Source: Methylococcaceae bacterium
Lineage (GTDB): Bacteria; Pseudomonadota; Gammaproteobacteria; Methylococcales; Methylomonadaceae
DNA length: 34,536 bases
Direction of reading: 5' to 3'
Assembly: GCA_031970635.1 (NCBI GenBank)
Contig: DALYHZ010000003.1
Span: 927-35,462, forward strand
Part shown: positions 1 through 23,104 of the stretch, one piece after another
Numbering within the stretch: the stretch's first letter is position 1
Layout: the number at the start of each line of letters is the position of its first letter
Notes under the pieces: generated by a model
What the model saw: the letters and a program-made list of their open reading frames with translations, nothing else
The model's database searches: none
What the model was told of the DNA's origin: nothing
Program-made: the position numbers and the translations under genes

Positions 1-108
1 ATGCGATTGTAATCGTCATTTCGGGCTATAATGGCAACTCAAAGCGATGCTTGCGTTTTCTTGCGTCGCGTTACACAGAATTATCAGCAACAGGAAAAAC
101 CACGCGCT

Positions 109-2488
<2,380 letters not shown>

Positions 2489-3282: not shown

Positions 3283-4099
3283 ATTACTCGAAAAATTATT
3301 AACCGAAGGTACGCAAAAAGGCGACCGCACGGGAAACGGGACGCTTTCAATTTTTGGACATCAAATGCGTTTTGATTTGGCTGATGGATTTCCGCTTATC
3401 ACCACCAAAAAAGTACATTTAAAATCGATTATTCATGAGTTGTTGTGGTTTTTAAACGGCGACACAAATAACAACACGTTAGAGAAAAATGGCGTTTCAA
3501 TTTGGCGTGAATGGGCAGATGAAAATGGTGAATTAGGCGCAATTTATGGCAAACAATGGCGTTCGTGGGAAACACCCAATGGCGAAACCATTGACCAAAT
3601 TTCACAAGTCATCGAACAGTTAAAAACTAATCCAAACAGCCGCCGCATTATTGTTTCAGCGTGGAATGTCGCGGATTTGCCTGACGAAAAAATCAGCCCG
3701 CAAGAAAATGTCAAAAAAGGCAAAATGGCTCTCGCGCCCTGTCATGCGTTTTTTCAGTTTTACGTTGCAAATGGCAAACTTTCTTGCCAACTTTATCAGC
3801 GCAGTTGTGACACGTTTATCGGTGTGCCATTCAACATTGCCAGTTACGCGCTTTTGACGATGATGATTGCCCAGCAATGCGATTTAGAACTTGGCGAATT
3901 TATTTGGACAGGTGGCGATGTGCATTTGTATTTAAATCATCTTGAGCAAGCTAAAACACAGTTGCAACGCACACCGCGTGCTTTGCCAACGATGAAAATT
4001 AAACGCAAACCTGCTTCGATTTTTGATTATGTTTACGACGACTTTGAGTTAATCGGTTACGATGCCGATACACATATCTCTGCACCCATTGCTATTTGA
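3266..4099 (+). CDS. thyA: Thymidylate synthase (ThyA type)
   Basis: From ATG 3266 the product reads [38 protein letters not shown]. It has the catalytic [14 protein letters not shown], plus [21 protein letters not shown] and a C-terminal APIAI. It is nearly collinear with E. coli ThyA and overlaps the lgt stop by 17 nt. Confidence 0.95.
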
Positions 4100-4109
4100 G
4101 AGGTTTGTT

Positions 4110-5135
4110 ATGTTTACTTACCATCGTTTAATTGCATTTTTCCTGCTGTTATTACTCGCTGGTTGTGCGTCTGAACCGGTTATTCGGCCGAGTAAACCTT
4201 ATCCCACTGATACAGGTAAATTACCCAGTTATACGGAAGTCCGTCCCATTGTTGGCGTTTATGCAAATCAACCTGCTGTCACAGCGTTTGTGCAACACAT
4301 GGTACATGACTATGGTTTTTCAGAAGATTATTTGAACAGCCTATTTTCGCAGGCGAATAAATTGGATTCGGTTTTGCGTTTAGAAGTGGATGCGCAAGTT
4401 CCTCCCAAACCCAAATATACAGGTCCGGTTGCGCCTGAACCGCTTATTCCGCCTAAGCCAAAACCTACGCCAGGGTGGTCAAGTTATCGCAAACAATTCA
4501 TGGATGACGCACACATTAACAATGGTGTTGTTTTTTGGCGCGCCAATGCCGAAGCTCTGCAACGTGCAGCGGCAACGTATCATGTTGATCCGGAATATAT
4601 TGTCGGCATTATTGGTGTGGAAACCTATTTCGGACGTAACGTGGGTAAAACCAACACGTTCGACGCGCTCAGTACACTTGCATTTTTTACATTGCGTCGC
4701 GCTGAATATTTCACCAAAGAATTGGAAAACTTTTTACTCATGACCAAAGAAGAAGGTTATGAACCGCGAAATGTTATCGGTTCATGGGCTGGTGCGTTAG
4801 GATTAGGGCAATTTATGCCTAAAAGTTTTCGTAAACTTGCTGTTGATTTTAATGGCGACGGTAAGCGTGATTTATGGAATTCTGTTGATGCCATTGGTAG
4901 CGTTGCCCATTATTTTAGTAGTTCGGGTTGGAAATTTAATGAACCGGTCGCCACGCCTATCAATGGCGATATTGATGCTGAATACATTATTTTGGGAACG
5001 GATACTGGCAATCAATTTTGGGCAATTGGTGACAATTTTAAAACCATCAAAAAATACAACAGCAGTAACAAATATGCGATGGCTGTGCATCAATTGGGAC
5101 AATCGATTAAGCAGCGATATTTAGCAATGAAATAG
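4110..5135 (+). CDS. mltB: Lytic murein transglycosylase B-type lipoprotein
   Basis: ATG 4110 has a GAGAGG SD. There is a lipoprotein signal with lipobox LLLAGC. A Pro/Lys-rich linker is followed by the GIIGVETYFGRN catalytic-Glu motif and GALGLGQFMP, as in MltB/Slt35. Confidence 0.85.
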   Translation: MFTYHRLIAFFLLLLLAGCASEPVIRPSKPYPTDTGKLPSYTEVRPIVGVYANQPAVTAFVQHMVHDYGFSEDYLNSLFSQANKLDSVLRLEVDAQVPPKPKYTGPVAPEPLIPPKPKPTPGWSSYRKQFMDDAHINNGVVFWRANAEALQRAAATYHVDPEYIVGIIGVETYFGRNVGKTNTFDALSTLAFFTLRRAEYFTKELENFLLMTKEEGYEPRNVIGSWAGALGLGQFMPKSFRKLAVDFNGDGKRDLWNSVDAIGSVAHYFSSSGWKFNEPVATPINGDIDAEYIILGTDTGNQFWAIGDNFKTIKKYNSSNKYAMAVHQLGQSIKQRYLAMK

Positions 5136-5178
5136 CGCAGGTATCCTTTTGTGACTTAGTGTGTCGGTGTGTTAAAGT

Positions 5179-5203
5179 TTGCCGCGAACAAATAACGCGG
5201 CAA
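5179..5203 (+). other. Perfect 8-bp inverted repeat TTGCCGCG-N9-CGCGGCAA between mltB and ccp. It could be a weak terminator or an operator.
   Basis: Read directly from the sequence. There is no T-run after the stem, so it is not a canonical intrinsic terminator. Confidence 0.3.
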
Positions 5204-5271
5204 TGTCTGCGTTATTCATAGTTCAATCTAAAAATAAAAATTATATTTTGTACGATTTAGGAGAGTTAAAA

Positions 5272-6276
5272 ATGTTTAAACTTCGTTCATTAGTCACAGC
5301 GTTAGCGTTGGTGGGTTCTATTTCCGTTGCCGGCGCGTGGGAAGCATTGCCGACACAAGCACCAGAGCCTAGCGATAACCCAAGCACTGCTGAAAAAGTA
5401 GAATTAGGCAAAATGCTTTATCACGACCCACGTTTATCTTCGACTGGTACAGTGTCTTGTGCATCTTGCCATAACACAACCTTAGGTGGCGAAGACAACC
5501 GTCCAAATTCAATGGGGGTCAATGGTCAAACCGGCGGACGCAGTGCGCCAACTGTTTGGAATGCCGCATTTAACAAAGTGCAATTCTGGGATGGTCGTGC
5601 CGCAACATTGGAAGCGCAAGCCGCAGGTCCTGTGACCAATCCAATTGAAATGGGCATGAAAAGCTGGGATGACGTAGTGGCACGTTTGAAAGGTATTCCG
5701 GGTTATCAAGCGGCATTTGAAACGGTTTACGGTAAAGATTCCATTTCTAAAGACAATGCAACGAAGGCGATTGCTGCTTATGAACGCACATTGATTACCC
5801 CAAATAGCCCTTACGATAAATACGTTGGTGGTGACAAATCAGCGTTATCAGCACAACAAGTTCGCGGCATGGAAAAAGTCGCTGAACTCGGTTGCACCAG
5901 TTGCCACAGCGGTCCAGCATTTAATGGTGCTGGCACATTCCAAAAATTCCCAATGAACGGCGACAGCTATTTAGAAGCGAAATATCATTTCACTAAAGAC
6001 AAAGGCGTTGCCGAAGTCTCTAAAAAAGCGGATGACGAACATTTCTTCAAAGTGCCAACCTTGCGAAATATTGCTGTGACCGCGCCTTATTTCCATAACG
6101 GTTCAGTTGCAACGTTAGACGAAGCCGTTAGAATCATGGCAAAAGTGCAATTGAATAAAGAGTTGTCAAAAGAGGAAACCGCCGACATCGTCGCATTCTT
6201 AAATGCGTTAACCGGTGAATTCCCTAAACAACACATGCCAAAATTACCTGAAACTGCAGGTAAAACTGTCAATTAA
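5272..6276 (+). CDS. ccp: Di-haem cytochrome c peroxidase (CCP/MauG family), periplasmic
   Basis: ATG 5272 has an AGGAGAG SD. The signal peptide is MFKLRSLVTALALVGSISVAGA. There are two CxxCH haem motifs (CASCHN, CTSCHS). FWDGRA, PVTNPIEMG and KVPTLRNIAVTAPYFHNGS are typical of bacterial CCP. Confidence 0.9.
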   Translation: MFKLRSLVTALALVGSISVAGAWEALPTQAPEPSDNPSTAEKVELGKMLYHDPRLSSTGTVSCASCHNTTLGGEDNRPNSMGVNGQTGGRSAPTVWNAAFNKVQFWDGRAATLEAQAAGPVTNPIEMGMKSWDDVVARLKGIPGYQAAFETVYGKDSISKDNATKAIAAYERTLITPNSPYDKYVGGDKSALSAQQVRGMEKVAELGCTSCHSGPAFNGAGTFQKFPMNGDSYLEAKYHFTKDKGVAEVSKKADDEHFFKVPTLRNIAVTAPYFHNGSVATLDEAVRIMAKVQLNKELSKEETADIVAFLNALTGEFPKQHMPKLPETAGKTVN

Positions 6277-6283
6277 AAAATGT

Positions 6284-6320
6284 AACGGGCGTGTTTGTTA
6301 CGGCAACACGTCCGTTTTTA
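6284..6320 (+). terminator. Rho-independent terminator after ccp
   Basis: Stem AACGGGCGTG (6284-6293) pairs with CACGTCCGTT (6307-6316) with one G-U pair, followed by TTTT. Confidence 0.7.
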
Positions 6321-6415
6321 AGCCAAATTTAGTGTAAAATCATCTCGTCGTTTTAAACGGCAGTTTGTGTTATTTTTTTCAAAGTTGTTTTTATTTTAAT
6401 TATTTGGAGTTATTC

Positions 6416-7018
6416 ATGAGTGTTTTAGTTGGCAAACAAGCCCCAGATTTTACAGTTCCTGCCGTTTTAGGTAATGGCGAAATCGTTGATGCGTTCAGTT
6501 TTTCAGAAGCGACTAAAGGCAAATATGCTGTCGTATTTTTCTACCCATTAGATTTCACATTCGTTTGCCCAAGCGAATTGATTGCGTTAGATCACCGCAT
6601 GGATGAATTCACGAAACGTAATGTTGAAGTCGTTGCTGTGTCTATCGACTCACATTTCACACACAACGCGTGGCGCAACACACCTGTAAATAACGGTGGT
6701 ATTGGCGCAGTAAAATACACCATGGCAGCGGACTTAACACATTCAATTGCCAAAGATTATGACGTAGAAGCGGATGCAGGCGTGGCATACCGTGGTGCGT
6801 TTGTTATCGATACAGCTGGTAAAGTGCGTTCGCAAATTGTGAATGATTTGCCATTAGGTCGTAACATTGATGAATTATTGCGTATTGTTGATGCGTTGCA
6901 ATTCCATGAAGAACATGGCGAAGTTTGCCCAGCAGGTTGGAAAAAAGGTGATGCGGGTATGAATGCAAATCCAGCAGGCGTTGCAGAATACTTAGCGAGC
7001 AATGCTGACAAATTATAA
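6416..7018 (+). CDS. ahpC: Typical 2-Cys peroxiredoxin (AhpC/TsaA family)
   Basis: ATG 6416 has a GGAG SD. The peroxidatic Cys lies in FFYPLDFTFVCPSEL and the resolving Cys in HGEVCPAGW. The product is 200 aa. No ahpF is adjacent. Confidence 0.9.
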   Translation: MSVLVGKQAPDFTVPAVLGNGEIVDAFSFSEATKGKYAVVFFYPLDFTFVCPSELIALDHRMDEFTKRNVEVVAVSIDSHFTHNAWRNTPVNNGGIGAVKYTMAADLTHSIAKDYDVEADAGVAYRGAFVIDTAGKVRSQIVNDLPLGRNIDELLRIVDALQFHEEHGEVCPAGWKKGDAGMNANPAGVAEYLASNADKL

Positions 7019-7034
7019 GTCGAGCTGGTAAAAC

Positions 7035-7075
7035 AAAAGGCGCAAGGTTTTAAAAATCTTGCGCCTTTTGTGTTT
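7035..7075. terminator. Bidirectional rho-independent terminator between convergent ahpC and the 86-aa gene
   Basis: AAAAGGCGCAAG (7035-7046) pairs with CTTGCGCCTTTT (7058-7069). A- and T-runs flank both sides. Confidence 0.8.
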
Positions 7076-7335
7076 TAAGCATTGTCGCGTTTGGCATCAG
7101 CGAGTAATTTTTGACGAACTAATGCCGCGCCAACCGTTGCAATAACCGCTGGCAACGTTGAGGCGACGATACGATTAGTCGTCAGCGCATCGGTGAGCAA
7201 ATGTGCCGCTTCCCACGTTATGCCAAAACCAATCAGACCGACAATCACCCATTTAAACGGTTCTTGATTATGCTCTTTTGCGCTGTAATAAAACCAAACT
7301 AAAATCGCAACGGCTGCAATTTTTGCTAATAACAT
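7075..7335 (-). CDS. Small (86 aa) membrane protein of unknown function
   Basis: There is a strong SD (AAGGAGA, 7340-7346 on the - strand) before ATG 7335. Two to three hydrophobic segments are present (IAAVAILVWFYY, WVIVGLIGFGITW, TLPAVIATVGAALV). I recognise no family. Confidence 0.6.
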   Translation of the reverse strand: MLLAKIAAVAILVWFYYSAKEHNQEPFKWVIVGLIGFGITWEAAHLLTDALTTNRIVASTLPAVIATVGAALVRQKLLADAKRDNA

Positions 7336-7377
7336 TGTTGTCTCCTTTTATTATTTTTATAAGTTTGAAATCATAGC

Positions 7378-8448
7378 ATGACGTTAAAAAAACCGCCCGT
7401 TGAGTTCGATTTTGCCGCTGCTTTATTGACGTGGTTCGATACGCACGGACGAAAAGATTTACCGTGGCAACAGGATAAATCGCCGTATCGCGTGTGGTTA
7501 TCAGAAATCATGTTGCAACAAACGCAAGTCGTGACGGTGATTCCGTATTTTGAAGCGTTTGTTGCTCAATTTCCGACGATTGAAAGTTTAGCCGCCGCAC
7601 CGCTTGATGATGTTTTACAACGTTGGGCAGGGTTAGGTTATTACGCACGAGCCAGAAATTTACACAAAGCCGCGCAAATGATTGTGCAACGCGGTTATTT
7701 TCCCAACTCGTTGCCCGAATTGTTGGAATTATCCGGCATTGGTAAATCGACAGCAGGGGCGATTTTAAGCATTGCTTTTCAAAAATCGCATCCAATTTTA
7801 GATGGCAATGTGAAGCGTGTTTTAACCCGTTTTTACGCGATTTCAGGTTGGACAGGCTTGCGTGAAATTGAAACGAAATTGTGGGAACTGAGTGAAAAGA
7901 TTACGCCTGTGGAACGTTGTGATGATTACACACAGGCGATTATGGATTTAGGTGCGACCCTTTGTACTCGTAGTAAACAGCGTTGTTATGATTGTCCAAT
8001 GTCTGCGGCTTGCGTGGCATTTTCGACTAACACCGTTGCCCATTATCCCTCGCCCAAACCAACTAAAAAATTACCCATTAAGCAAACGTTTTTTCTACTT
8101 ATTCGCAACGAACAGCAAGAAATTTGGTTAGAGCAACGTTCGCTAAAAGGCATTTGGGGTGGTCTTTGGAGTTTGCCAGAAGTTGAAACCATTGAAGACG
8201 CGCAAAATTGGTGTCAGCAAAAAAATTTGACCATTCAACATCAACAATTGTTATTGTCTCAACGCCATACGTTTTCGCATTACCATTTGGATTACACGCC
8301 ACTATGTTTAGAGGTTAAAACGTTAGAAAATTCAAATTTTCACACGCGCGAACAATGGCAAAATCGCGCATTACCGACACCGATTTACACACTTTTAAGA
8401 ACGAATCGAAGCGACGATATTTTCAACTTCACCACCGACGCTCCATAA
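7378..8448 (+). CDS. mutY: A/G-specific adenine DNA glycosylase
   Basis: [24 protein letters not shown], an HhH-GPD region ([15 protein letters not shown]) and a 4Fe-4S cluster loop [17 protein letters not shown] are present. The C-terminal part is NUDIX-like. Confidence 0.9.
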
Positions 8449-8754
8449 TTTTTCCAGTTGATAATGTTCACGCGCTTGTTGTGTCATCGCATGAACAATC
8501 ACATCGCCTAAATCGAGTAACACCCAATCTGAAGTCATATCGCCTTCCATACCAAGCGGGTGAACACCATTTTCTTTTACTTTGGCTTCAACGTAATCGC
8601 ATAAGGCTTTCACTTGGCGATTCGATGTACCGGTGACGACAATCATATAATCGGTAAAACTGGTTTTATCACGCACATCTAAAACCACTATGTCTTGTGC
8701 TTTACGTTCGTTTAATTCGCTTTCAACTAAAGCTAATAATGTCTCTGTTTGCAT
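8395..8754 (-). CDS. rsfS: Ribosomal silencing factor RsfS (Iojap/YbeB)
   Basis: [34 protein letters not shown] and [30 protein letters not shown] are collinear with E. coli RsfS. It lies downstream of nadD, as is usual. Confidence 0.9.
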
Positions 8755-8784
8755 TGTGTTCCTATTTTAAAATCAATCAAAAAA

Positions 8785-9408
8785 TCAGCGTTGATAAAGC
8801 CGATGTTGAATAATGTAATGGATAACCGCGTCTGGTAACAAAAAACGCGGGTTTTGTTGGGCGGTAATCATACCGCGAATTGCGGTTGCAGAAATGGCTA
8901 ATTGCGTAATTTCTTGAAAAAAGAGATGACCAGAACAATGTTCTTTTAAAAGGGCTTTTTCATCAGTCAATTTCGCGGCAAAAAATCGATTAAGTGGATT
9001 ATTTAATTCGGCATTTGGACGAGTAATGACCACGACATGCGCTAGATTAAATAATTCTTGCCAACGAAACCATGTTGTTAATTCATTAAACGCATCGCTA
9101 CCAATAAATAAAAGCAATGGTGTGTTTGGGTAATCATGGCGTAAAGCTGTTAATGTATCGAATGTGTAAGACTTTCCAGCGCGTTGCAGTTCTTGTGCAT
9201 CGACAATGAAATCGGTTTGATTTTGTGTTGCTAATTGCAACATTTCTAGACGTTGCGTTGCTGTTCCTGCTGGTTGTTCACGATGAGCAGGACGAGCGCA
9301 AGGAATTAAACGAACGTGGTCAAGCTCAAATAATTCCTTAAGTTCTAACGCTGAACGCAAATGCCCGTAATGAACGGGGTCGAATGTACCGCCGAAGATG
9401 CCAATCAT
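8785..9408 (-). CDS. nadD: Nicotinate-nucleotide adenylyltransferase
   Basis: The N-terminus IGIFGGTFDPVHYGHL carries the (H/T)xGH nucleotidyltransferase motif. ISATAIR lies near the C-terminus. The gene is in nadD-rsfS synteny. Confidence 0.9.
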   Translation of the reverse strand: MIGIFGGTFDPVHYGHLRSALELKELFELDHVRLIPCARPAHREQPAGTATQRLEMLQLATQNQTDFIVDAQELQRAGKSYTFDTLTALRHDYPNTPLLLFIGSDAFNELTTWFRWQELFNLAHVVVITRPNAELNNPLNRFFAAKLTDEKALLKEHCSGHLFFQEITQLAISATAIRGMITAQQNPRFLLPDAVIHYIIQHRLYQR

Positions 9409-9845
9409 GAGGCGAGTAAATTTTTTGAATACGCTAGCGTGTTATGAACAATTTTAATCAGCTCAGGTGTTAAATCACGCACTTCAGCGAAAACGGATTC
9501 TAATTCATCGTCAATATATTCATGCACAATTTCGTTGCGTAAATCATTTAAATCACGCATCACGTCAATGCTTTCAAATAATTTCCGTTTATGTGCTTTG
9601 TTGATAGTGTCAATTAACGTGCCTTGTGTTTCAAATTCGGCGGCATCAATCGCGCGAAAAACTTTGCGAACTACAAAATCAATTGTGCGTGAAAAACGAC
9701 TACACAAATTTTCGTAATGGTTAATAGTTTCAATATCGAGCAGCGCGTTTAAATCAATTTGCGCCACTTGTTCAAAAGAATAACTAAGCCAAAAAAGTTG
9801 TTTTTCAAGCAATGTGATTTGAGTTTGTAAATTTTCGATGCTCAT
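9405..9845 (-). CDS. HEPN-domain protein (HepT/DUF86- or HI0074-like), the putative toxin of an MNT-HEPN pair
   Basis: It carries the R-x4-H-x-Y motif in LRNEIVHEY near the C-terminus. The protein is 146 aa and looks helical. A 4-nt ATGA overlap links it to the upstream minimal nucleotidyltransferase gene, and another links it to nadD. Confidence 0.7.
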   Translation of the reverse strand: MSIENLQTQITLLEKQLFWLSYSFEQVAQIDLNALLDIETINHYENLCSRFSRTIDFVVRKVFRAIDAAEFETQGTLIDTINKAHKRKLFESIDVMRDLNDLRNEIVHEYIDDELESVFAEVRDLTPELIKIVHNTLAYSKNLLAS

Positions 9846-10126
9846 AAACTTATCGCTGTTGGAAAAATCATTCTGACAAATGGTGTTTCAAGTTCACCCG
9901 AATCTAAAACTAAATCAATTTTTTGTTCACCAAATTTATCGCAAAATTGACGTTTCACTTTTCGCAAAGCAGATTTTGTTAAATGTTTTGAAAAAATTAA
10001 CACGTCAATATCGCCACCTTTTTTACTGTCATCAACGCGACTACCAAATAAAAAGACTTGTGCGTTTTGGTCAAAAGTTTGGATGGCAGATTTCAATGTT
10101 TCGCGTTCTGCGTTCGTTAGTCGCAT
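9842..10126 (-). CDS. Minimal nucleotidyltransferase (MNT/MntA-like), the putative antitoxin
   Basis: This 94-aa protein contains LFGSRVDDSKKGGDIDVLIF, matching the GS-x(n)-D-x-D polymerase-beta-type nucleotidyltransferase motif. It is paired with the HEPN gene. Confidence 0.75.
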   Translation of the reverse strand: MRLTNAERETLKSAIQTFDQNAQVFLFGSRVDDSKKGGDIDVLIFSKHLTKSALRKVKRQFCDKFGEQKIDLVLDSGELETPFVRMIFPTAISL

Positions 10127-17435: not shown

Positions 17436-17462
17436 TAAAGTTTAGATGGCTTATGCCGATAC
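17436..17462 (+). promoter_or_regulatory. Sigma-28 (FliA)-type promoter TAAAGTTT-N11-GCCGATAC
   Basis: It matches 15/16 positions of the class-3 flagellar promoter consensus TAAAGTTT-N11-GCCGATAA with the exact 11-nt spacer. It is intergenic, correctly oriented and 84 nt upstream of ATG 17547. Confidence 0.75.
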
Positions 17463-17546: not shown

Positions 17547-18179
17547 ATGACAACTTCAACAATTAGTTCGCCAGCAGCATCATTCTTAACGCAAAACATT
17601 CAAAGTGTTAATACACAATCGAAAACGAATAATGATAAAGAGAATTCAGGGGCATTAGGCATTACTGCTATTAACACTGCTGGTTCATTTTTACAAAATG
17701 TTATACAGTCTCTACAAGGTTTGGGCTTAAATGTTTCCGGTGTTGGTAGCACACAAACTGCGGCAGTCACAGGTTCATCCTCTGCAACATCATCGAATAC
17801 AAGTAAAGCCTTGCAAACTTTTTTGTATGATTTATACAAGGTTTTAAATCAGGGGCGTTCTGAACAAACATCCTCTGATAGCACGAGCTCTGATGATTAC
17901 AATAGTTCGCAGGTTGCAAATGTACAAAACACATACAACGACCCTAATGCAAACTTGCAAAATTTAATCAATTCGCTTGGCGATAAAACAAACAGTAACA
18001 CTGGAAAAAATGCCACATTACAAACTGATTTTGCTAATCTTGTCCAATCATTGGGTGGTTCAACGTCGTCTTCAACAACGACTAATTTGCAAAGCTTTTT
18101 AAAACAATTATCAGCAAATACCGGAAATGGTAATTCGCTAGTAGGCGGTTTAGGTTCTCTTTTCTCGGCAGTTGCTTAA
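17547..18179 (+). CDS. Orphan 210-aa Ser/Thr/Asn/Gln-rich protein, a candidate flagellum-co-expressed or exported protein
   Basis: A GAGG SD lies 9 nt upstream. There is no signal peptide, TM segment, Cys, Trp or His. Five amphipathic LQxhhxxL-type segments are separated by S/T/N spacers. A sigma-28 promoter lies upstream and a hairpin downstream. Confidence 0.65.
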   Translation: MTTSTISSPAASFLTQNIQSVNTQSKTNNDKENSGALGITAINTAGSFLQNVIQSLQGLGLNVSGVGSTQTAAVTGSSSATSSNTSKALQTFLYDLYKVLNQGRSEQTSSDSTSSDDYNSSQVANVQNTYNDPNANLQNLINSLGDKTNSNTGKNATLQTDFANLVQSLGGSTSSSTTTNLQSFLKQLSANTGNGNSLVGGLGSLFSAVA

Positions 18180-18305: not shown

Positions 18306-19763
18306 ATGCAATACCGCGATTTACGCGATTTTATTCAGCAACTCGAAAAACAAGGCGAACTCAAACGCACCAATTATCAAGCCGATCCTTATTTAGAAAT
18401 CACCGAAATTTGTGATCGCACGCTCAAGCAACAGGGCGCAGCATTATTGTTTGAACGTCCGAAAGGTTATAACGTGCCGTTGCTTGGCAATTTATTTGGT
18501 ACACCGCACCGCGTCGCAATGGGCATGGGTGCAGATTCACTAAGTGCCTTGCGCGAAATAGGACATTTACTGGCATATCTAAAAGAACCGGAACCGCCTA
18601 AGGGTTTTCGTGACGCTATGGAAAAGATCCCTGTGTTCAAGCAGGTGTTAAATATGTCGCCAAAAATTATAAAAAATCCGCCGTGTCAGGAAAATGTGTT
18701 GCGTGGCGATGAAATAGATTTAGGACGTTATCCGATTCAACATTGCTGGCCAGGTGATGTTGCGCCGCTGATTACTTGGGCATTGGTGATTACCAAAGGT
18801 CCAAATAAAGAGCGGCAGAATATGGGCGTTTATCGGCAACAAGTATTGGGAAAAAATAAAACGATTATGCGCTGGCTTGCACATCGTGGTGGCGCGTTGG
18901 ATTTTAAAGAATGGCAGGACGTACATCCGAATGAACCGTTCCCCGTTACGGTGGTTTTGGGGGCTGACCCTGCGACGATTTTAGCGGCTGTCACGCCTGT
19001 TCCTGATTCGCTTTCAGAATATGCGTTTGCTGGTTTATTGCGCGGCAGTAAAACCGAACTTGCCGATTGTTTGAGTAATAATTTACAAGTGCCTGCCAGT
19101 GCGGAAATTGTTTTAGAAGGTTTTATTTATCCCAATGAAACCGCACCCGAAGGTCCTTATGGCGATCATACCGGTTATTACAACGAAGTAAGTGATTTTC
19201 CAGTATTTACGATTGAAACCATTACTGAGCGTACCAATCCGATTTATCACAGCACTTACACTGGTCGTCCACCTGACGAACCTGCAATTTTAGGCGTGGC
19301 GTTAAACGAAGTGTTTATCCCGATTTTGCAAAAACAGTTTCCTGAAATTATTGATTTCTATTTGCCACCCGAAGGCTGTTCATATCGCATGGCAGTGATT
19401 AGTATGAAAAAACAATATGCCGGTCACGCTAAACGGGTGATGCTCGGAACGTGGTCATTTTTGCGGCAATTCATGTACACAAAATTTGTAATTGTCGTGG
19501 ATGACGATATTAACGTGCGGGATTGGCAGGATGTGATTTGGGCAATTACTACACGCATGGATCCAGCGCGAGATTTAACGATTTTAGAAAATACGCCGAT
19601 TGATTATTTAGATTTTGCCTCGCCTGTTTCGGGATTAGGTTCAAAAGTGGGCTTTGATGCCACGAATAAATGGGCTGGCGAAACCAATCGAGAGTGGGGC
19701 AGAACGATTACCATGTCCCCAGACATTATTCAGCGGGTGAATGAGATTTGGGATATGTTGTAA
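18306..19763 (+). CDS. ubiD: 4-hydroxy-3-polyprenylbenzoate decarboxylase
   Basis: [70 protein letters not shown] and [14 protein letters not shown] are collinear with E. coli UbiD. Confidence 0.95.
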
Positions 19764-19765
19764 TC

Positions 19766-19806
19766 AAAAAAAACGCCCCTTAAAAAGTTAAGGGGCGTTT
19801 TTTATT
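19766..19806. terminator. Bidirectional rho-independent terminator between convergent ubiD and the 1009-aa gene
   Basis: AAAAAACGCCCCTTAA-aaag-TTAAGGGGCGTTTTTT forms a perfect stem flanked by A- and T-runs. Confidence 0.85.
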
Positions 19807-19853
19807 TTAAAGGAAAGTCAATCAAAACGACTCACTTCACCTCAAATGTGAAT

Positions 19854-22800
19854 TTATGCCACAAGCGCAAAGTTCGCCGCAACAAAGTCGCCTGAACTTA
19901 GTGAAGTAACACCTGTTAATGTGACCAAATCCGTGACGGTTGTCGAACTCGCTGCAAGTGTCGTTCCACCTGTAGCCATATTGACTGCTGAGACGTGACC
20001 AAGTGTGCCATCAGACCATACGACGAGAATATCATCATTTGCTGTTACCGCACTTGCAAAGGTCAAGGCTCTTGTACCACCTGTTTCGATTGCGGTTTGA
20101 ACAGCGGCGGCATTGGTAAATGTTGTGCCTACAAGTTCGATAATGTTATTGCCCGCCGCTAGTGTAGTTGCTGCACTCGCAGCCGTTACTGCAAGCGTAG
20201 AACTGGTTGTAACAGCTACGGCATTACCATCTTTTAGTGCAGAGATGTAACCCGTTGTTCCGCTCGTACCAGCATATCCCGTAAGTGAAATGCTTAACAC
20301 GTCACCACCTGTGCCTCTTGTAAAATCGGTAATCACATCAATTCCATTCAAAGTGGTTGCAAGTAGTTTAAATGTGTCAGCACCGCTACCACCCGTTAAA
20401 CTATCAACACCAACACCACCTGTGATCGTATCATTGCCAGAACCACCCGTAATGGTATCTGCTCCCGTACCGCCTGTGATTGATACTGTGCCTGTGCCTG
20501 CATAAGTGACATTATTTGCGTAATCGCCTAATGTTACAGTATCTGCGCCACCGCCACCATTGATAGTCACCACAGCCGCTGCGCCGCTGAAAGTAAGCGC
20601 ATCTACGCCAGAAGTACCTGTGATTGAAGTAAAGCCTGCTGTGCCAAAATCCGCACCTAATGTACCACTCGAAGATGTACCGCCAAAGGCTAACGTTGTA
20701 AAACCTGTAACATGGGCAAAATCACCAGAAACTAGTCCAGATGTTGCTGTGAAACTCAATGTATCGCCTGTATTACCACCACCGTTAATCGTTGCCGCAG
20801 CTAAAATATCTGTGTGATTTGCAACGATCACCGTATCTGCACCAGCCCCTGCAGTGATGCTATCAGCACCACCTGCACCGCTAATGGTATCTGCACCAGA
20901 ACTGCCTGTGATGGTATCTGCTAACGTGCTACTACCTGTGATATTTACAGCTGATTTGCCTGCGGTAATCACCGTTGATGCGGTTAGCCCTGTGACAGTT
21001 CCTGAGGTTTCAATACCTGCAGTGCTTGAAGAAGGTGAACTTCCTATCTTGGTTACATAGCCTTTTGTATCACGAATCCATGAAAGCGCATCTGCACTTA
21101 ATACAGCCACTTGTGTTTGAGTAAATGATTCAAGTTGTCCTGCATCGGTTGCGCTTAATGCCGCAAGTTGTGCAGTTGTAATAGCAGGCACTGCACTAGT
21201 CGTCAAAGAATGAATCGCACCTGTGCTAAGACCAGCTGTTAAACCTTTAAATGTGGCTGGTTTCATTTCGGCAATGACGCTACTGGTTAAAGCTGCGGCT
21301 TGGGTTGATGTTAAACCACCGATTTGAGTTGTTGAGGATGATAAAGATGGAGACTGATCTGCGGTTAATGCTGCAATATGCGCCGTATCAAATCCTAGTA
21401 AGTTTAAACTTTTAACTGCTTTCGGGTCTAGCACAGCAATAGCGGCTGTTGAGAGAGTCGCTGCTTGAGCAGATGATAGTTTAGCAACTTGTGGTTGCAA
21501 TAATGCAGCGGCTTGGTCTGCACCAAAAGAGGGTAATTGACCTGCTGCCGTTGTTGTCAAAACTGCCATTTGATTAGGTGTGAGAGCCGCGATTTGATCT
21601 GCTGACATGGAGGCAAACGCGGCAGCTTTAAGCGAAGGCACAGCTGCTGTTGTAATGGCTTTTAATGTGGCTGGTTGTAATGCTACAACGTCATCAGAGG
21701 TTAGATTTGCAACTTGTGTTGCAGACAATGCTTTGGCTTGTACTGGGGTTAAAGCCGCCGCTTGATCTGAAGTTAATAGAGCAATTTGTGCTGAATCTAA
21801 ACCAAGAATATTTTTTGCAGTTAAACCAGGAATCGATTGTGGGTCGATAGCAATTAACGATGCTGAGGCAATGGCGTGTACTTGTGCAGATGTTAATGCC
21901 GACATCGCTTGAGGTGTTAATAATGACGCGCCAGTTGAATCGATAGCCGCTATAGATGTTGTGCTTAAATAACCAAATTGTGCAGGTTTTAATGCCGCAA
22001 GTTGCCCATCACCTACCAAATAAGAGAGTGTTAACCCCGCCATATTCGTTTTATTAAAGCCGGCAATTGCGGGAAGACTTAATACGGCTACATCATCTGG
22101 TGTTAATGCCGCCACTTTTGCAGAAGTTAACGCGCCAATTTGTGCGGCTGTAATGGCGGGAGCTTGATCGATAGTAATTGCAGCCAATTGCGCCGTGGTT
22201 AATGCACCAAATGTTTTAGCCGGAAGTGCAGACAAAAATGTGTTGCTTAGTGTTGCCACAATTTCTGTTGGTAACAGCGCTATAGATTTAGAAGAAAACG
22301 AAGCGGCTTGAGTCGTTGTCAAAGCGGCAATTTGATCAGCTGTTAAACCAAGCGCTTGCGCAGAACCAATAGCACCAATTTGGGCAGGCGTTAAAGCGGC
22401 AATTTCGGTTGGCGTTAACAACGCCATACTGTCTGAGGTTAATAAGTTAATTTTTAACCCTGCCAATCCACCAGGTGTTTTTGCAGTGCCAATAGAGAAT
22501 GCGCCTAAGTGATCGCTATCTAGAGCAATCAATTGGCTTTTAGTCAATGCTGTCACTTGATCGGATGTCAATGCTGTGATTTGGGTTGGCGTAAATCCGT
22601 TCAACTGGTCAGTCGTCAACGCTACAATTTCTGCTGTTGTCAAACCTGGAATTGCTTTTGATGAAATGCCTGCTAAAGCTCCGGGATCGATATTTTTCAA
22701 TTGGCTGACGGGCAAAGAAGTGATGTTTTTAACGGTTAATGTTGCTAATAAATCGGCTGTCAATCCTGCCGCTTGCGTTTTTGTCAGCACTGCAAAATCA

Positions 22801-22883
22801 GCACTGGTAAATTTTGCAAACTGGGCGGGTGTAACTGTACTAATATCTGTTGTTGCAGCAAGTGCAAATGTTGCGGTAGCCAT
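19854..22883 (-). CDS. 1009-aa secreted or surface repeat protein. It has ~65 octapeptide LTxxQIAA repeats, RTX-type Gly/Asp repeats and a type I secretion-type C-terminal domain.
   Basis: A GAGGA SD lies 8 nt before the ATG. There is no signal peptide and no Cys. The RTX-type block is GGTGADTITGGSGNDTITGGVGVDSLTGGSGADTF, followed by GIDVITDFTRGTGGDVLSISL and a ~180-aa tail, as in T1SS substrates. Confidence 0.8.
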   Translation of the reverse strand: MATATFALAATTDISTVTPAQFAKFTSADFAVLTKTQAAGLTADLLATLTVKNITSLPVSQLKNIDPGALAGISSKAIPGLTTAEIVALTTDQLNGFTPTQITALTSDQVTALTKSQLIALDSDHLGAFSIGTAKTPGGLAGLKINLLTSDSMALLTPTEIAALTPAQIGAIGSAQALGLTADQIAALTTTQAASFSSKSIALLPTEIVATLSNTFLSALPAKTFGALTTAQLAAITIDQAPAITAAQIGALTSAKVAALTPDDVAVLSLPAIAGFNKTNMAGLTLSYLVGDGQLAALKPAQFGYLSTTSIAAIDSTGASLLTPQAMSALTSAQVHAIASASLIAIDPQSIPGLTAKNILGLDSAQIALLTSDQAAALTPVQAKALSATQVANLTSDDVVALQPATLKAITTAAVPSLKAAAFASMSADQIAALTPNQMAVLTTTAAGQLPSFGADQAAALLQPQVAKLSSAQAATLSTAAIAVLDPKAVKSLNLLGFDTAHIAALTADQSPSLSSSTTQIGGLTSTQAAALTSSVIAEMKPATFKGLTAGLSTGAIHSLTTSAVPAITTAQLAALSATDAGQLESFTQTQVAVLSADALSWIRDTKGYVTKIGSSPSSSTAGIETSGTVTGLTASTVITAGKSAVNITGSSTLADTITGSSGADTISGAGGADSITAGAGADTVIVANHTDILAAATINGGGNTGDTLSFTATSGLVSGDFAHVTGFTTLAFGGTSSSGTLGADFGTAGFTSITGTSGVDALTFSGAAAVVTINGGGGADTVTLGDYANNVTYAGTGTVSITGGTGADTITGGSGNDTITGGVGVDSLTGGSGADTFKLLATTLNGIDVITDFTRGTGGDVLSISLTGYAGTSGTTGYISALKDGNAVAVTTSSTLAVTAASAATTLAAGNNIIELVGTTFTNAAAVQTAIETGGTRALTFASAVTANDDILVVWSDGTLGHVSAVNMATGGTTLAASSTTVTDLVTLTGVTSLSSGDFVAANFALVA
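20375..20925 (-). repeat. Coding RTX-like Gly/Asp-rich nonapeptide repeat region
   Basis: TGSSGADTISGAGGADSITAGAGADTV, INGGGGADTVTLGD and GGTGADTITGGSGNDTITGGVGVDSLTGGSGADTF fit the GGxGxDxUx calcium-binding repeat. Confidence 0.75.
21085..22830 (-). repeat. Coding tandem array of degenerate 24-nt (8-codon) repeats, consensus L-T-x-x-Q-I-A-A
   Basis: Protein residues ~20-600 can be written in a nearly uninterrupted 8-residue register, for example LTPTEIAA LTPAQIGA IGSAQALG LTADQIAA LTTTQAAS FSSKSIAL LPTEIVAT LSNTFLSA LPAKTFGA LTTAQLAA. Confidence 0.8.
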
Positions 22884-22934
22884 TTTTAAATCCTCAATAT
22901 GAAAAATGAAATGTTATGATGCTCGTTCGTGTAT

Positions 22935-22961
22935 GTATCGGCAAAATAAAGCAGATCTTTA
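22935..22961 (-). promoter_or_regulatory. Sigma-28 (FliA)-type promoter TAAAGATC-N11-GCCGATAC (read on the - strand)
   Basis: The reverse complement of 22935-22961 is TAAAGATC tgctttatttt GCCGATAC. This matches 13/16 consensus positions with the exact 11-nt spacer. The -10 octamer is identical to that of the 17436 promoter. It lies 51 nt upstream of ATG 22883. Confidence 0.65.
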
Positions 22962-23104
22962 CTTTTGTTGTTTTCATAAATAGTACGCCACAAACTAAAT
23001 TGAGCGTAAGTATATATAACTTTGAAATTGTTTAACTCTCAAATTGCCAAAAATGTGATAGTTTTCACAGTTTCGATGTTGGTATTAGGAAGTTTATATC
23101 ATCA

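Follow-up and report, generated by a model that had tools for sequence, protein, structure and literature searches.

The subject of this analysis is a gene in a 34,536-nucleotide (nt) stretch of chromosome from a Methylococcaceae bacterium (contig DALYHZ010000003.1, positions 927–35,462; hereafter the window), which encodes a 1009-amino-acid (aa) protein joining a long domain of ALTTAQ repeats to a C-terminal RTX region (19854..22883, minus strand). The gene is preceded by a bipartite site, TAAAGATC-N11-GCCGATAC, which every in silico test of the class supports as a promoter of the sigma-28 (FliA) type. Its product, the ALTTAQ-RTX protein, is likewise supported by its sequence as an RTX substrate of a type I secretion system (T1SS), having the features looked for apart from linked transporter genes, with a C-terminal secretion signal that is putative. 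Together, these point to late-flagellar, sigma-28-driven transcription of a helical-rod RTX surface protein exported by a T1SS, a reading that is held to be probable, with appreciable room for doubt. The sequences themselves show the motif, its non-randomness and conservation, the domain architecture, the terminator and the hypervariability of the gene, whereas dependence on FliA, timing, the export route, the location at the surface and the role of the protein are inferred.

The promoter candidate ahead of the ALTTAQ-RTX gene

On the minus strand, the −35 element TAAAGATC (22954..22961) agrees with the consensus TAAAGTTT at six of eight positions and retains the TAAAG core, while the −10 element GCCGATAC (22935..22942) agrees with GCCGATAA at seven of eight and retains the CGA core. 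The spacer between them, tgctttatttt (22953–22943), is exactly 11 nt long, giving 13/16 matches to the full consensus TAAAGTTT-N11-GCCGATAA. The site is intergenic, lying inside the 221-nt spacer that separates lysR from the ALTTAQ-RTX gene, is co-oriented with that gene, and stands 51 nt from its ATG (22883–22881). Within the leader (22884..22934, minus strand), a strong Shine–Dalgarno (SD) sequence, GAGGA (22895–22891), is followed by TTTAAAA and then the ATG, and transcription would begin some 7–9 nt past the −10 element, near 22927. Reading of the minus strand thus confirmed the coordinates, match count, distance and ribosome-binding site given in an earlier note on this DNA, made from the sequence alone and called here the original prediction.

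At its other end, the gene converges on ubiD (plus strand), with which it has in common a strong bidirectional intrinsic terminator, AAAAAAAACGCCCCTTAAAAAGTTAAGGGGCGTTTTTT (19766..19808, neither strand assigned), whose main element, between the two convergent genes, is a GC-rich hairpin of 16 bp with A- and T-runs on either side. The 101-nt intergenic segment around it (19760–19860, minus strand) folds at −35.5 kcal/mol, with a z-score of −6.5. The ALTTAQ-RTX gene is taken to be monocistronic because it has its own promoter, leader and terminator.

The original prediction had further argued that two intergenic GCCGATA heptamers, each correctly oriented and with TAAAG at the correct spacing, were very unlikely to be random, given that only a handful of heptamers would be expected by chance. 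The chance estimate stood, at 2.66 expected in the window, but six are present, and the heptamer alone is therefore only mildly enriched. It is for the bipartite core, TAAAG-N14-GCCGATA, that the claim of non-randomness holds: exactly two occur in the window, at 22936 (minus strand) and 17436 (plus strand), both intergenic, in the correct orientation, and respectively 51 and 84 nt ahead of a start codon. Shuffled sequences yielded 0.00 such cores without a mismatch and 0.08 with one, and 80 gammaproteobacterial ubiD loci from other genomes (~1.4 Mb) contained a single match, in the locus L047 (other loci are similarly designated by an L and a number). That match lies at 6623–6648 in a Chromatiales metagenome-assembled genome (MAG). 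As the spacers of the two window sites are unrelated, the sites are not copies of a repeat.

The second of these sites, TAAAGTTT-N11-GCCGATAC (17436..17462, plus strand), matches the consensus at 15/16 positions and lies 84 nt ahead of a gene for a 210-aa protein, p210 (17547..18179, plus strand), which is S/T/N/Q-rich, lacks Cys, and has no family match in Pfam or NCBIfam, even at relaxed thresholds. Composition of this kind resembles that of flagellar export substrates. A p210 homologue in L164 (61% identical; 3700–4642) is preceded by TAAAGTTT-N11-GCCGACAC at 83 nt, and a more distant one in L167/L168 (36% identical; L167 3700–4765), in a wholly different neighbourhood, by TAAAGATG-N11-GCCGATAA at 42 nt. 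The bipartite motif therefore tracks two unrelated genes across several contexts, which argues for a sigma-factor site over a gene-specific operator.

Conservation of the candidate promoter and its limits

Protein searches returned distant relatives only, of which the best named match, at 37% identity, agrees with the window protein in architecture and in its MATT... start, whereas a metagenome scan with the family alignment produced 79 loci. Homologues at 37–68% identity share this architecture and the MATT... N-terminus. Among them is a syntenic orthologue in L085 and L169 (one species, of which L169 is the more complete), with the order EF-hand gene, p210, ubiD, ALTTAQ-RTX, lysR and penicillin-binding protein (PBP) gene. 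Its candidate promoter, TAAAGATT-tactttgttat-GCCGATAA, scores 15/16 and lies 53 nt ahead of the ATG. In L086, where the protein is 60% identical and the order lysR-X-ubiD is kept, the corresponding site is AAAAGATT-N11-ACCGATTA at 57 nt, with the CCGAT core retained.

Pairwise and three-way alignments showed the distal spacer to be essentially unalignable between the window and these orthologues, with four conserved islands: the −35 element, the −10 element, an SD-ATG block, and an upstream block with the consensus TGTG..GTAG.GTAGTATT. The SD-ATG block, GAGGATTTAAAAATGGC, is invariant in the window, L085 and L086, and recurs in many family members. The upstream block, which in the window reads GTTTGTGGCGTACTATT (22979..22995, minus strand) and was defined by alignment of the same three loci, may be a regulator site or an UP-like element. 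It lies ~20–40 nt upstream of the −35 element (L085 ~3885–3905; L086 ~5895–5915), and a similar block, TGTGTAGTAGGATT, is found upstream of a paralogue in L004.

Beyond the orthologues, sites scoring 14–15/16 precede three further clades of the protein family. L092, placed in the Methylococcaceae by its AspS cluster, has TAAAGTTT-N11-GTCGATAA twice, each at 15/16, at 100 and 228 nt from the ATG; L109 has TAAAGTTT-N10-GTCGATAA (15/16) at 98 nt; and L090 has TTAAGTTT-N11-ACCGATAA (14/16) at 78 nt. A weaker site, TAAAATAT-N11-ACCGATGA (12/16), lies 60 nt from the ATG in L091. The tandem sites of L092, at 5704–5730 and 5832–5858, are 128 nt apart and upstream of one ALTTAQ-RTX homologue. In control upstream regions, taken from 616 other open reading frames (ORFs) of the same loci, a score of at least 14/16 was reached once (0.2%) and one of at least 12/16 in 1.8%. 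A looser pattern, T[AC]AA-N15-17-[CT]CGAT, precedes 6/45 ALTTAQ genes against 3/314 controls (p = 2e-4). Conservation in orthologues, recurrence in the family and rarity in controls thus lend support to the sigma-28 assignment of the original prediction. Matches to GCCGATAC ahead of the L096 and L106 homologues were dropped, since they lie inside the preceding coding sequence.

Compared with the sigma-28 (FliA/SigD) class at large, the window site has both cores, the 11-nt spacer and conservation in orthologues, but differs in its setting, as it precedes a non-flagellar, T1SS-type gene among housekeeping genes instead of belonging to a flagellar or chemotaxis cluster. Several observations tell against the assignment. 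The window site scores just 13/16, with two mismatches in the −35 element; the upstream lysR is co-oriented, with no clear terminator in between, so that read-through is possible; and neither fliA, flgM nor flagellar structural genes were seen in the window or the fetched loci of the host organism, where they are presumed from its taxonomy and from the conserved sigma-28 motifs. Within the family, two groups of paralogues (clades L004a/L087/L102 and L004b/L089) have TAAAxAAT-N11-xCCG(T/C)TAx, without the CGA core; no convincing site was found upstream of the L084, L101 and L104 genes, the L084 homologue (P0005) having TCCGATAA alone, with no −35 element; and the L096 and L107 genes, which are operonic with an upstream gene, have no convincing site of their own.

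The closest species representative, L004 (UbiD 95% identical), carries two tandem ALTTAQ-RTX paralogues beside ubiD in a rearranged order. Upstream of these no canonical sigma-28 site was found, only TAAAxAAT-N11-(A/G)CCGTTA(A/T) variants, and conservation of the promoter is therefore not universal. The two paralogues (3472–9814), called as ORFs of 1001 and 1076 aa, lie on the other side of ubiD, and CCGTTA replaces CCGATA upstream of them.

Among the distant, high-GC ALTTAQ members, only the orthologue pair L113/L144 has a convincing site, TCAAGTTG-N11-GCCGATCC; in L121/L151, GCCGATAG is present with the wrong −35 spacing, and the remaining members have no site. As these members mostly lack one, the link is not claimed for PF20080, the ALTTAQ family, as a whole: judged from upstream sequences, it holds for a Methylococcales ALTTAQ-RTX subfamily and not demonstrably for all of PF20080. 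The L113 and L144 sites (~1215–1243 and ~1405–1433) lie ~100 nt upstream of giant ALTTAQ ORFs, called at 5062 and 4350 aa respectively, on 70%-GC contigs. Their −35 element is of the TCAAG variety, which is known for sigma-28-like sites of other Proteobacteria.

These limits give some room to the possibility that the motif is not a working promoter, and that the gene is transcribed by sigma-70, perhaps with activation by LysR or by read-through from lysR, the conserved motif being a regulator site with a chance resemblance to TAAAG-N14-GCCGATA. Such an arrangement would fit the co-oriented lysR, syntenic in the window, L085/L169 and L086; the lack of a terminator-like structure between lysR and the ALTTAQ-RTX gene; the second conserved block, TGTG..GTAG.GTAGTATT, just upstream; and the paralogues without a canonical CGA −10. 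It is nonetheless considered unlikely. The lysR-to-gene spacer (22884–23104) was searched for competing sites and contains no sigma-70-like hexamer pair and no sigma-54-like site, the sigma-28 motif being unique within this intergenic region. The motif also recurs with the correct spacing where no lysR is adjacent (L090, L092 and L109), and precedes the unrelated p210 gene in three contexts, as a gene-specific operator would not; a chance match is ruled out statistically by the shuffles, the other loci and the controls.

A different objection accepts the sigma-28-family factor but uncouples it from flagellar assembly, for example in a non-motile host, which would make the link to motility spurious. 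The fetched DNA of the host organism showed no flagellar genes, and the FapA-family gene of the window (PF03961/PF20250; 15601–17340), divergent from the p210 gene, gives way in the orthologue to an EF-hand gene (L169 7331–7735). The original prediction had pointed to this FapA-like gene as a neighbour; in the orthologous locus the gene is not adjacent, and the adjacency is considered incidental. To our knowledge, sigma-28 in Gammaproteobacteria is the flagellar FliA, and a FapA-family gene is present in the window. Flagellar gene clusters have, moreover, been documented in a motile Methylococcales methanotroph (PMC6956133). On balance, uncoupling of this sort seems improbable, and transcription by a late-flagellar sigma-28 is retained as the preferred reading.

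A predicted helical rod, an RTX roll and a variable tail

The ALTTAQ-RTX protein has a mass of 98 kDa and a pI of 4.3 (4.31), lacks Cys, and has a high content of A, T, L, S and G. Its first ~620 residues (21024..22883, minus strand) form an ALTTAQ-repeat domain of ~75 eight-residue units, matching PF20080 with an E-value of 5e-46 (154.4 bits against a gathering score of 26.4, in eight stretches), and all the homologues likewise carry PF20080. Modelling with AlphaFold2 (AF2), using a 50-sequence alignment, gave a predicted local distance difference test score mostly >90 at residues ~10–600, with a helix of 4–6 residues every eight residues. Residues 351–458 match the sequence of the designed protein HeliScrew4 (PDB 9ZEM) with an E-value of 4e-12. 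HeliScrew4 was designed de novo as an 8-mer alpha-helical screw, and the only natural counterpart reported for it in the PDB is 7QLR (10.64898/2025.12.04.691947), the receptor-binding protein of phage CDHS-1. No meaningful global match came from a Foldseek search of the PDB, in which 7QLR was among otherwise poor ones. The rod resembles both structures in its eight-residue units and short helices arranged round an axis, and differs from HeliScrew4 in being natural, ~600 residues long, and drawn from a large Pfam family. The ALTTAQ domain is therefore best read as a long natural alpha-helical screw rod, a confidently predicted fold that the original prediction, in recognising an RTX protein, had missed.

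The RTX calcium-binding beta-roll occupies residues ~640–840 (20364..20966, minus strand), matches PF00353 above its gathering score (E 4e-16), and contains eight RTX nonapeptides (aa 660–839). This part has sequence matches to CyaA, the AlgE epimerases and proteases of the serralysin family (protease C), and AF2 placed beta strands in it, with low confidence in the tail that follows. The capping element, VITDFTRGTGGDVLSISL, and a variable tail of ~170 aa ending in ...DLVTLTGVTSLSSGDFVAANFALVA (19857..20363, minus strand) make up the C-terminus, and together constitute a putative uncleaved T1SS signal. All complete family members end in L-x-G-V/T...hydrophobic-A/V, though their tails are otherwise unrelated, and this shared ending fits a signal of that type. 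At the N-terminus, MATATFALAATTDISTV, neither a basic n-region nor a long hydrophobic core is apparent by inspection, and the start is thus not signal-peptide-like. Nonapeptides, D-x-I-x-DF element, tail (claimed at ~180 aa) and lack of a signal peptide had all been described in the original prediction and are borne out here, so that its assignment to the RTX class is supported; its word giant is less apt, 1009 aa being large only.

The window protein shares GGxGxDxUx nonapeptides, a DxIxDFxxGxD cap, acidity, freedom from Cys and the lack of a signal peptide with serralysin-family proteases, CyaA, AlgE and RsaA, and its ending, ...LTG-x-x-x-L...hydrophobic-A, resembles those of RTX/T1SS substrates. 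The C-terminus of RsaA, the Caulobacter surface-layer (S-layer) protein, is similar. The window protein departs from these substrates in having no catalytic or known S-layer domain, an ALTTAQ rod over its N-terminal two thirds and a sigma-28 promoter, and in the lack of linked genes for the ATP-binding cassette (ABC), membrane fusion protein (MFP) and outer-membrane protein components.

Two points run counter to export by a T1SS. First, no Pfam or NCBIfam model of T1SS targets matches the tail, again at relaxed thresholds too, and the resemblance is at motif level only. Second, ABC, MFP and TolC genes are absent from the proteins of the 34.5-kb window, as the original prediction had stated, and were also not found near the ALTTAQ-RTX gene or ~20 homologues; beside the homologues in L004, L086, L087, L091, L092, L096, L107 and L169, no T1SS genes were seen. 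T1SS genes unlinked to the gene of their substrate are common, and the lack of linkage therefore does not exclude membership of the RTX/T1SS class.

A further possibility retains the sigma-28 promoter but has the protein, and perhaps p210 too, leave through the flagellar type III apparatus. Non-flagellar, secreted proteins under FliA control include YplA of Yersinia, FspA, Cia and Fed of Campylobacter, and XlpA and XhlA of Xenorhabdus, several of which, among them YplA and FspA/Cia, are exported via the flagellar apparatus. Flagellar export would suit the promoter, the lack of both a signal peptide and adjacent T1SS genes, the composition of the co-regulated p210 (S/T/N/Q-rich and Cys-free), and an extreme N-terminus (M-A-T, then T12-D13) that is invariant across members 36–49% identical. 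The MATT start may, on the other hand, owe its conservation to efficient initiation of translation, or to its forming the first turn of a rod that AF2 models as helical already by residues ~14–22. The T1SS-like C-terminal ending persists in all family members, including those with unrelated tails, and we know of no RTX nonapeptides with a capping D-x-I-x-DF outside T1SS substrates. Unlike cargo of the YplA/FspA type, the window protein has an RTX region and a putative C-terminal signal that point to a T1SS, and the flagellar route is accordingly given little credence.

The closest precedent for the favoured combination of sigma-28 transcription and T1SS export is FrhA of Vibrio cholerae, a large surface adhesin of the RTX family that is reported, in strain O395, to be regulated within the flagellar hierarchy at class 4, its expression dropping in FlrA, FlrBC and FliA mutants (PMC6890996). 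The original prediction was right to call such wiring to a flagellar sigma factor unusual, although FrhA shows that it is not without precedent. The two proteins are otherwise dissimilar. FrhA has a scaffold of cadherin and Calx-beta repeats and, at its N-terminus, a periplasmic retention module that LapG cleaves; at least part of its control is indirect, by way of the diguanylate cyclase CdgD. In the window protein, the ALTTAQ repeats start at about residue 11 and the predicted screw at about residue 14, which leaves no room for a retention module; Pfam and NCBIfam detected no N-terminal domain other than ALTTAQ, and no module of the LapA/FrhA type is present. The window gene, for its part, has a canonical sigma-28 motif directly ahead of it.

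In enteric bacteria and Vibrio, FlgM keeps FliA inactive as long as the hook-basal body is unfinished, and by analogy the ALTTAQ-RTX protein would be produced in the motile phase along with flagellin. FliA-RNA polymerase would recognise TAAAGATC-N11-GCCGATAC and initiate a few bases downstream, giving an mRNA of ~3.1 kb that would be translated from the GAGGA ribosome-binding site and end at the terminator in common with ubiD. As for other proteins of the RTX class, the unfolded, acidic product would leave C-terminus first via a T1SS encoded elsewhere, its tip emerging first; Ca2+ would then fold the RTX roll outside the cell, with the helical-screw rod following. The end product would be a rod-shaped protein with a variable tip, held at the surface or released.

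Hypervariability, significance and the surrounding locus

Comparison with the orthologous locus in L085/L169 revealed that LysR (98.7%), UbiD (98.8%) and PBP (96%) are nearly identical, whereas the ALTTAQ-RTX protein is 67.5% identical and p210 66.9% (over the ~160 aa available on the orthologue contig). Because the flanking genes are 96–99% identical, the two sigma-28-linked genes are the hypervariable elements of the locus, a property absent from the original prediction. The divergence is mosaic and, within this 96–99%-identical neighbourhood, affects window positions 19854–21020 (L169 10306–11500). The rod (aa 1–620) is 77% identical to that of the orthologue, residues 621–1009 are 37.5% identical, and the last 109 residues 22%. 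The divergent distal end thus resembles the outcome of cassette or allelic replacement, or of diversifying selection, and C-terminal variability of this kind is the pattern that would be expected of a surface-exposed tip, for example one that serves in adhesion or is targeted by phages or grazers.

The fold prediction, made for a member of a Pfam family as large as PF20080, suggests that the alpha-helical screw is common among bacterial proteins. No mention of the ALTTAQ family was found in the searchable literature, and searches for Methylobacter with RTX and flagella were empty or off-target. The promoter would provide a first clue to the function of ALTTAQ-repeat proteins, at least one subfamily of which would be produced with the flagellum, probably as a secreted, fast-evolving surface rod. 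It would also add to the few T1SS/RTX surface proteins with a link to the flagellar hierarchy, one that in this case apparently runs through a direct promoter. The hypervariable locus belongs to environmentally important methane oxidisers, and loci of this type shape interactions with phages, grazers and surfaces. A bolder proposal, put forward tentatively and regarded as doubtful, is that the ALTTAQ-RTX protein and p210 together define a so far unrecognised class of methanotroph proteins: late-flagellar (sigma-28) cargo consisting of hypervariable surface components based on a natural screw rod, made only at completion of the flagellum, and maybe associated with the flagellum or cell pole, or exported by the flagellar route. 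On that view, PF20080 would be a large family of bacterial surface proteins with the helical screw, a fold called almost absent from nature in 2025, as its scaffold.

The surroundings are those of a housekeeping stretch of chromosome. In addition to the FapA-family gene, ubiD, the LysR regulator and the class A PBP, the window carries gyrB, lgt, thyA, mltB, mutY, nadD, proA, pgpA, thiL, trpFBA, accD and folC. At 90% identity, UbiD clusters with proteins whose named sources are Methylococcales/Methylococcaceae MAGs; the closest representatives at species level are Methylococcales STC_14 and a Methylobacter-like MAG, and identical copies of the locus occur in three metagenome or MAG contigs.

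Elsewhere in the window (31–2488), gyrB is split into overlapping ORFs at 31..1272 and 1226..2488, whose products match positions 4–388 and 396–803 of NF011501, respectively the N-terminal and the C-terminal half of GyrB. This implies a frameshift near 1226–1272, either an assembly error or a real disruption of an essential gene. A pair of small genes at 9405–10126 (minus strand) resembles a toxin-antitoxin system of the HepT/MNT type: the first has a weak HepT-like match, just below the gathering score (PF01934, E 1e-4), and the second, in the contig gene table, has weak nucleotidyltransferase matches only (PF01909 and PF18765).

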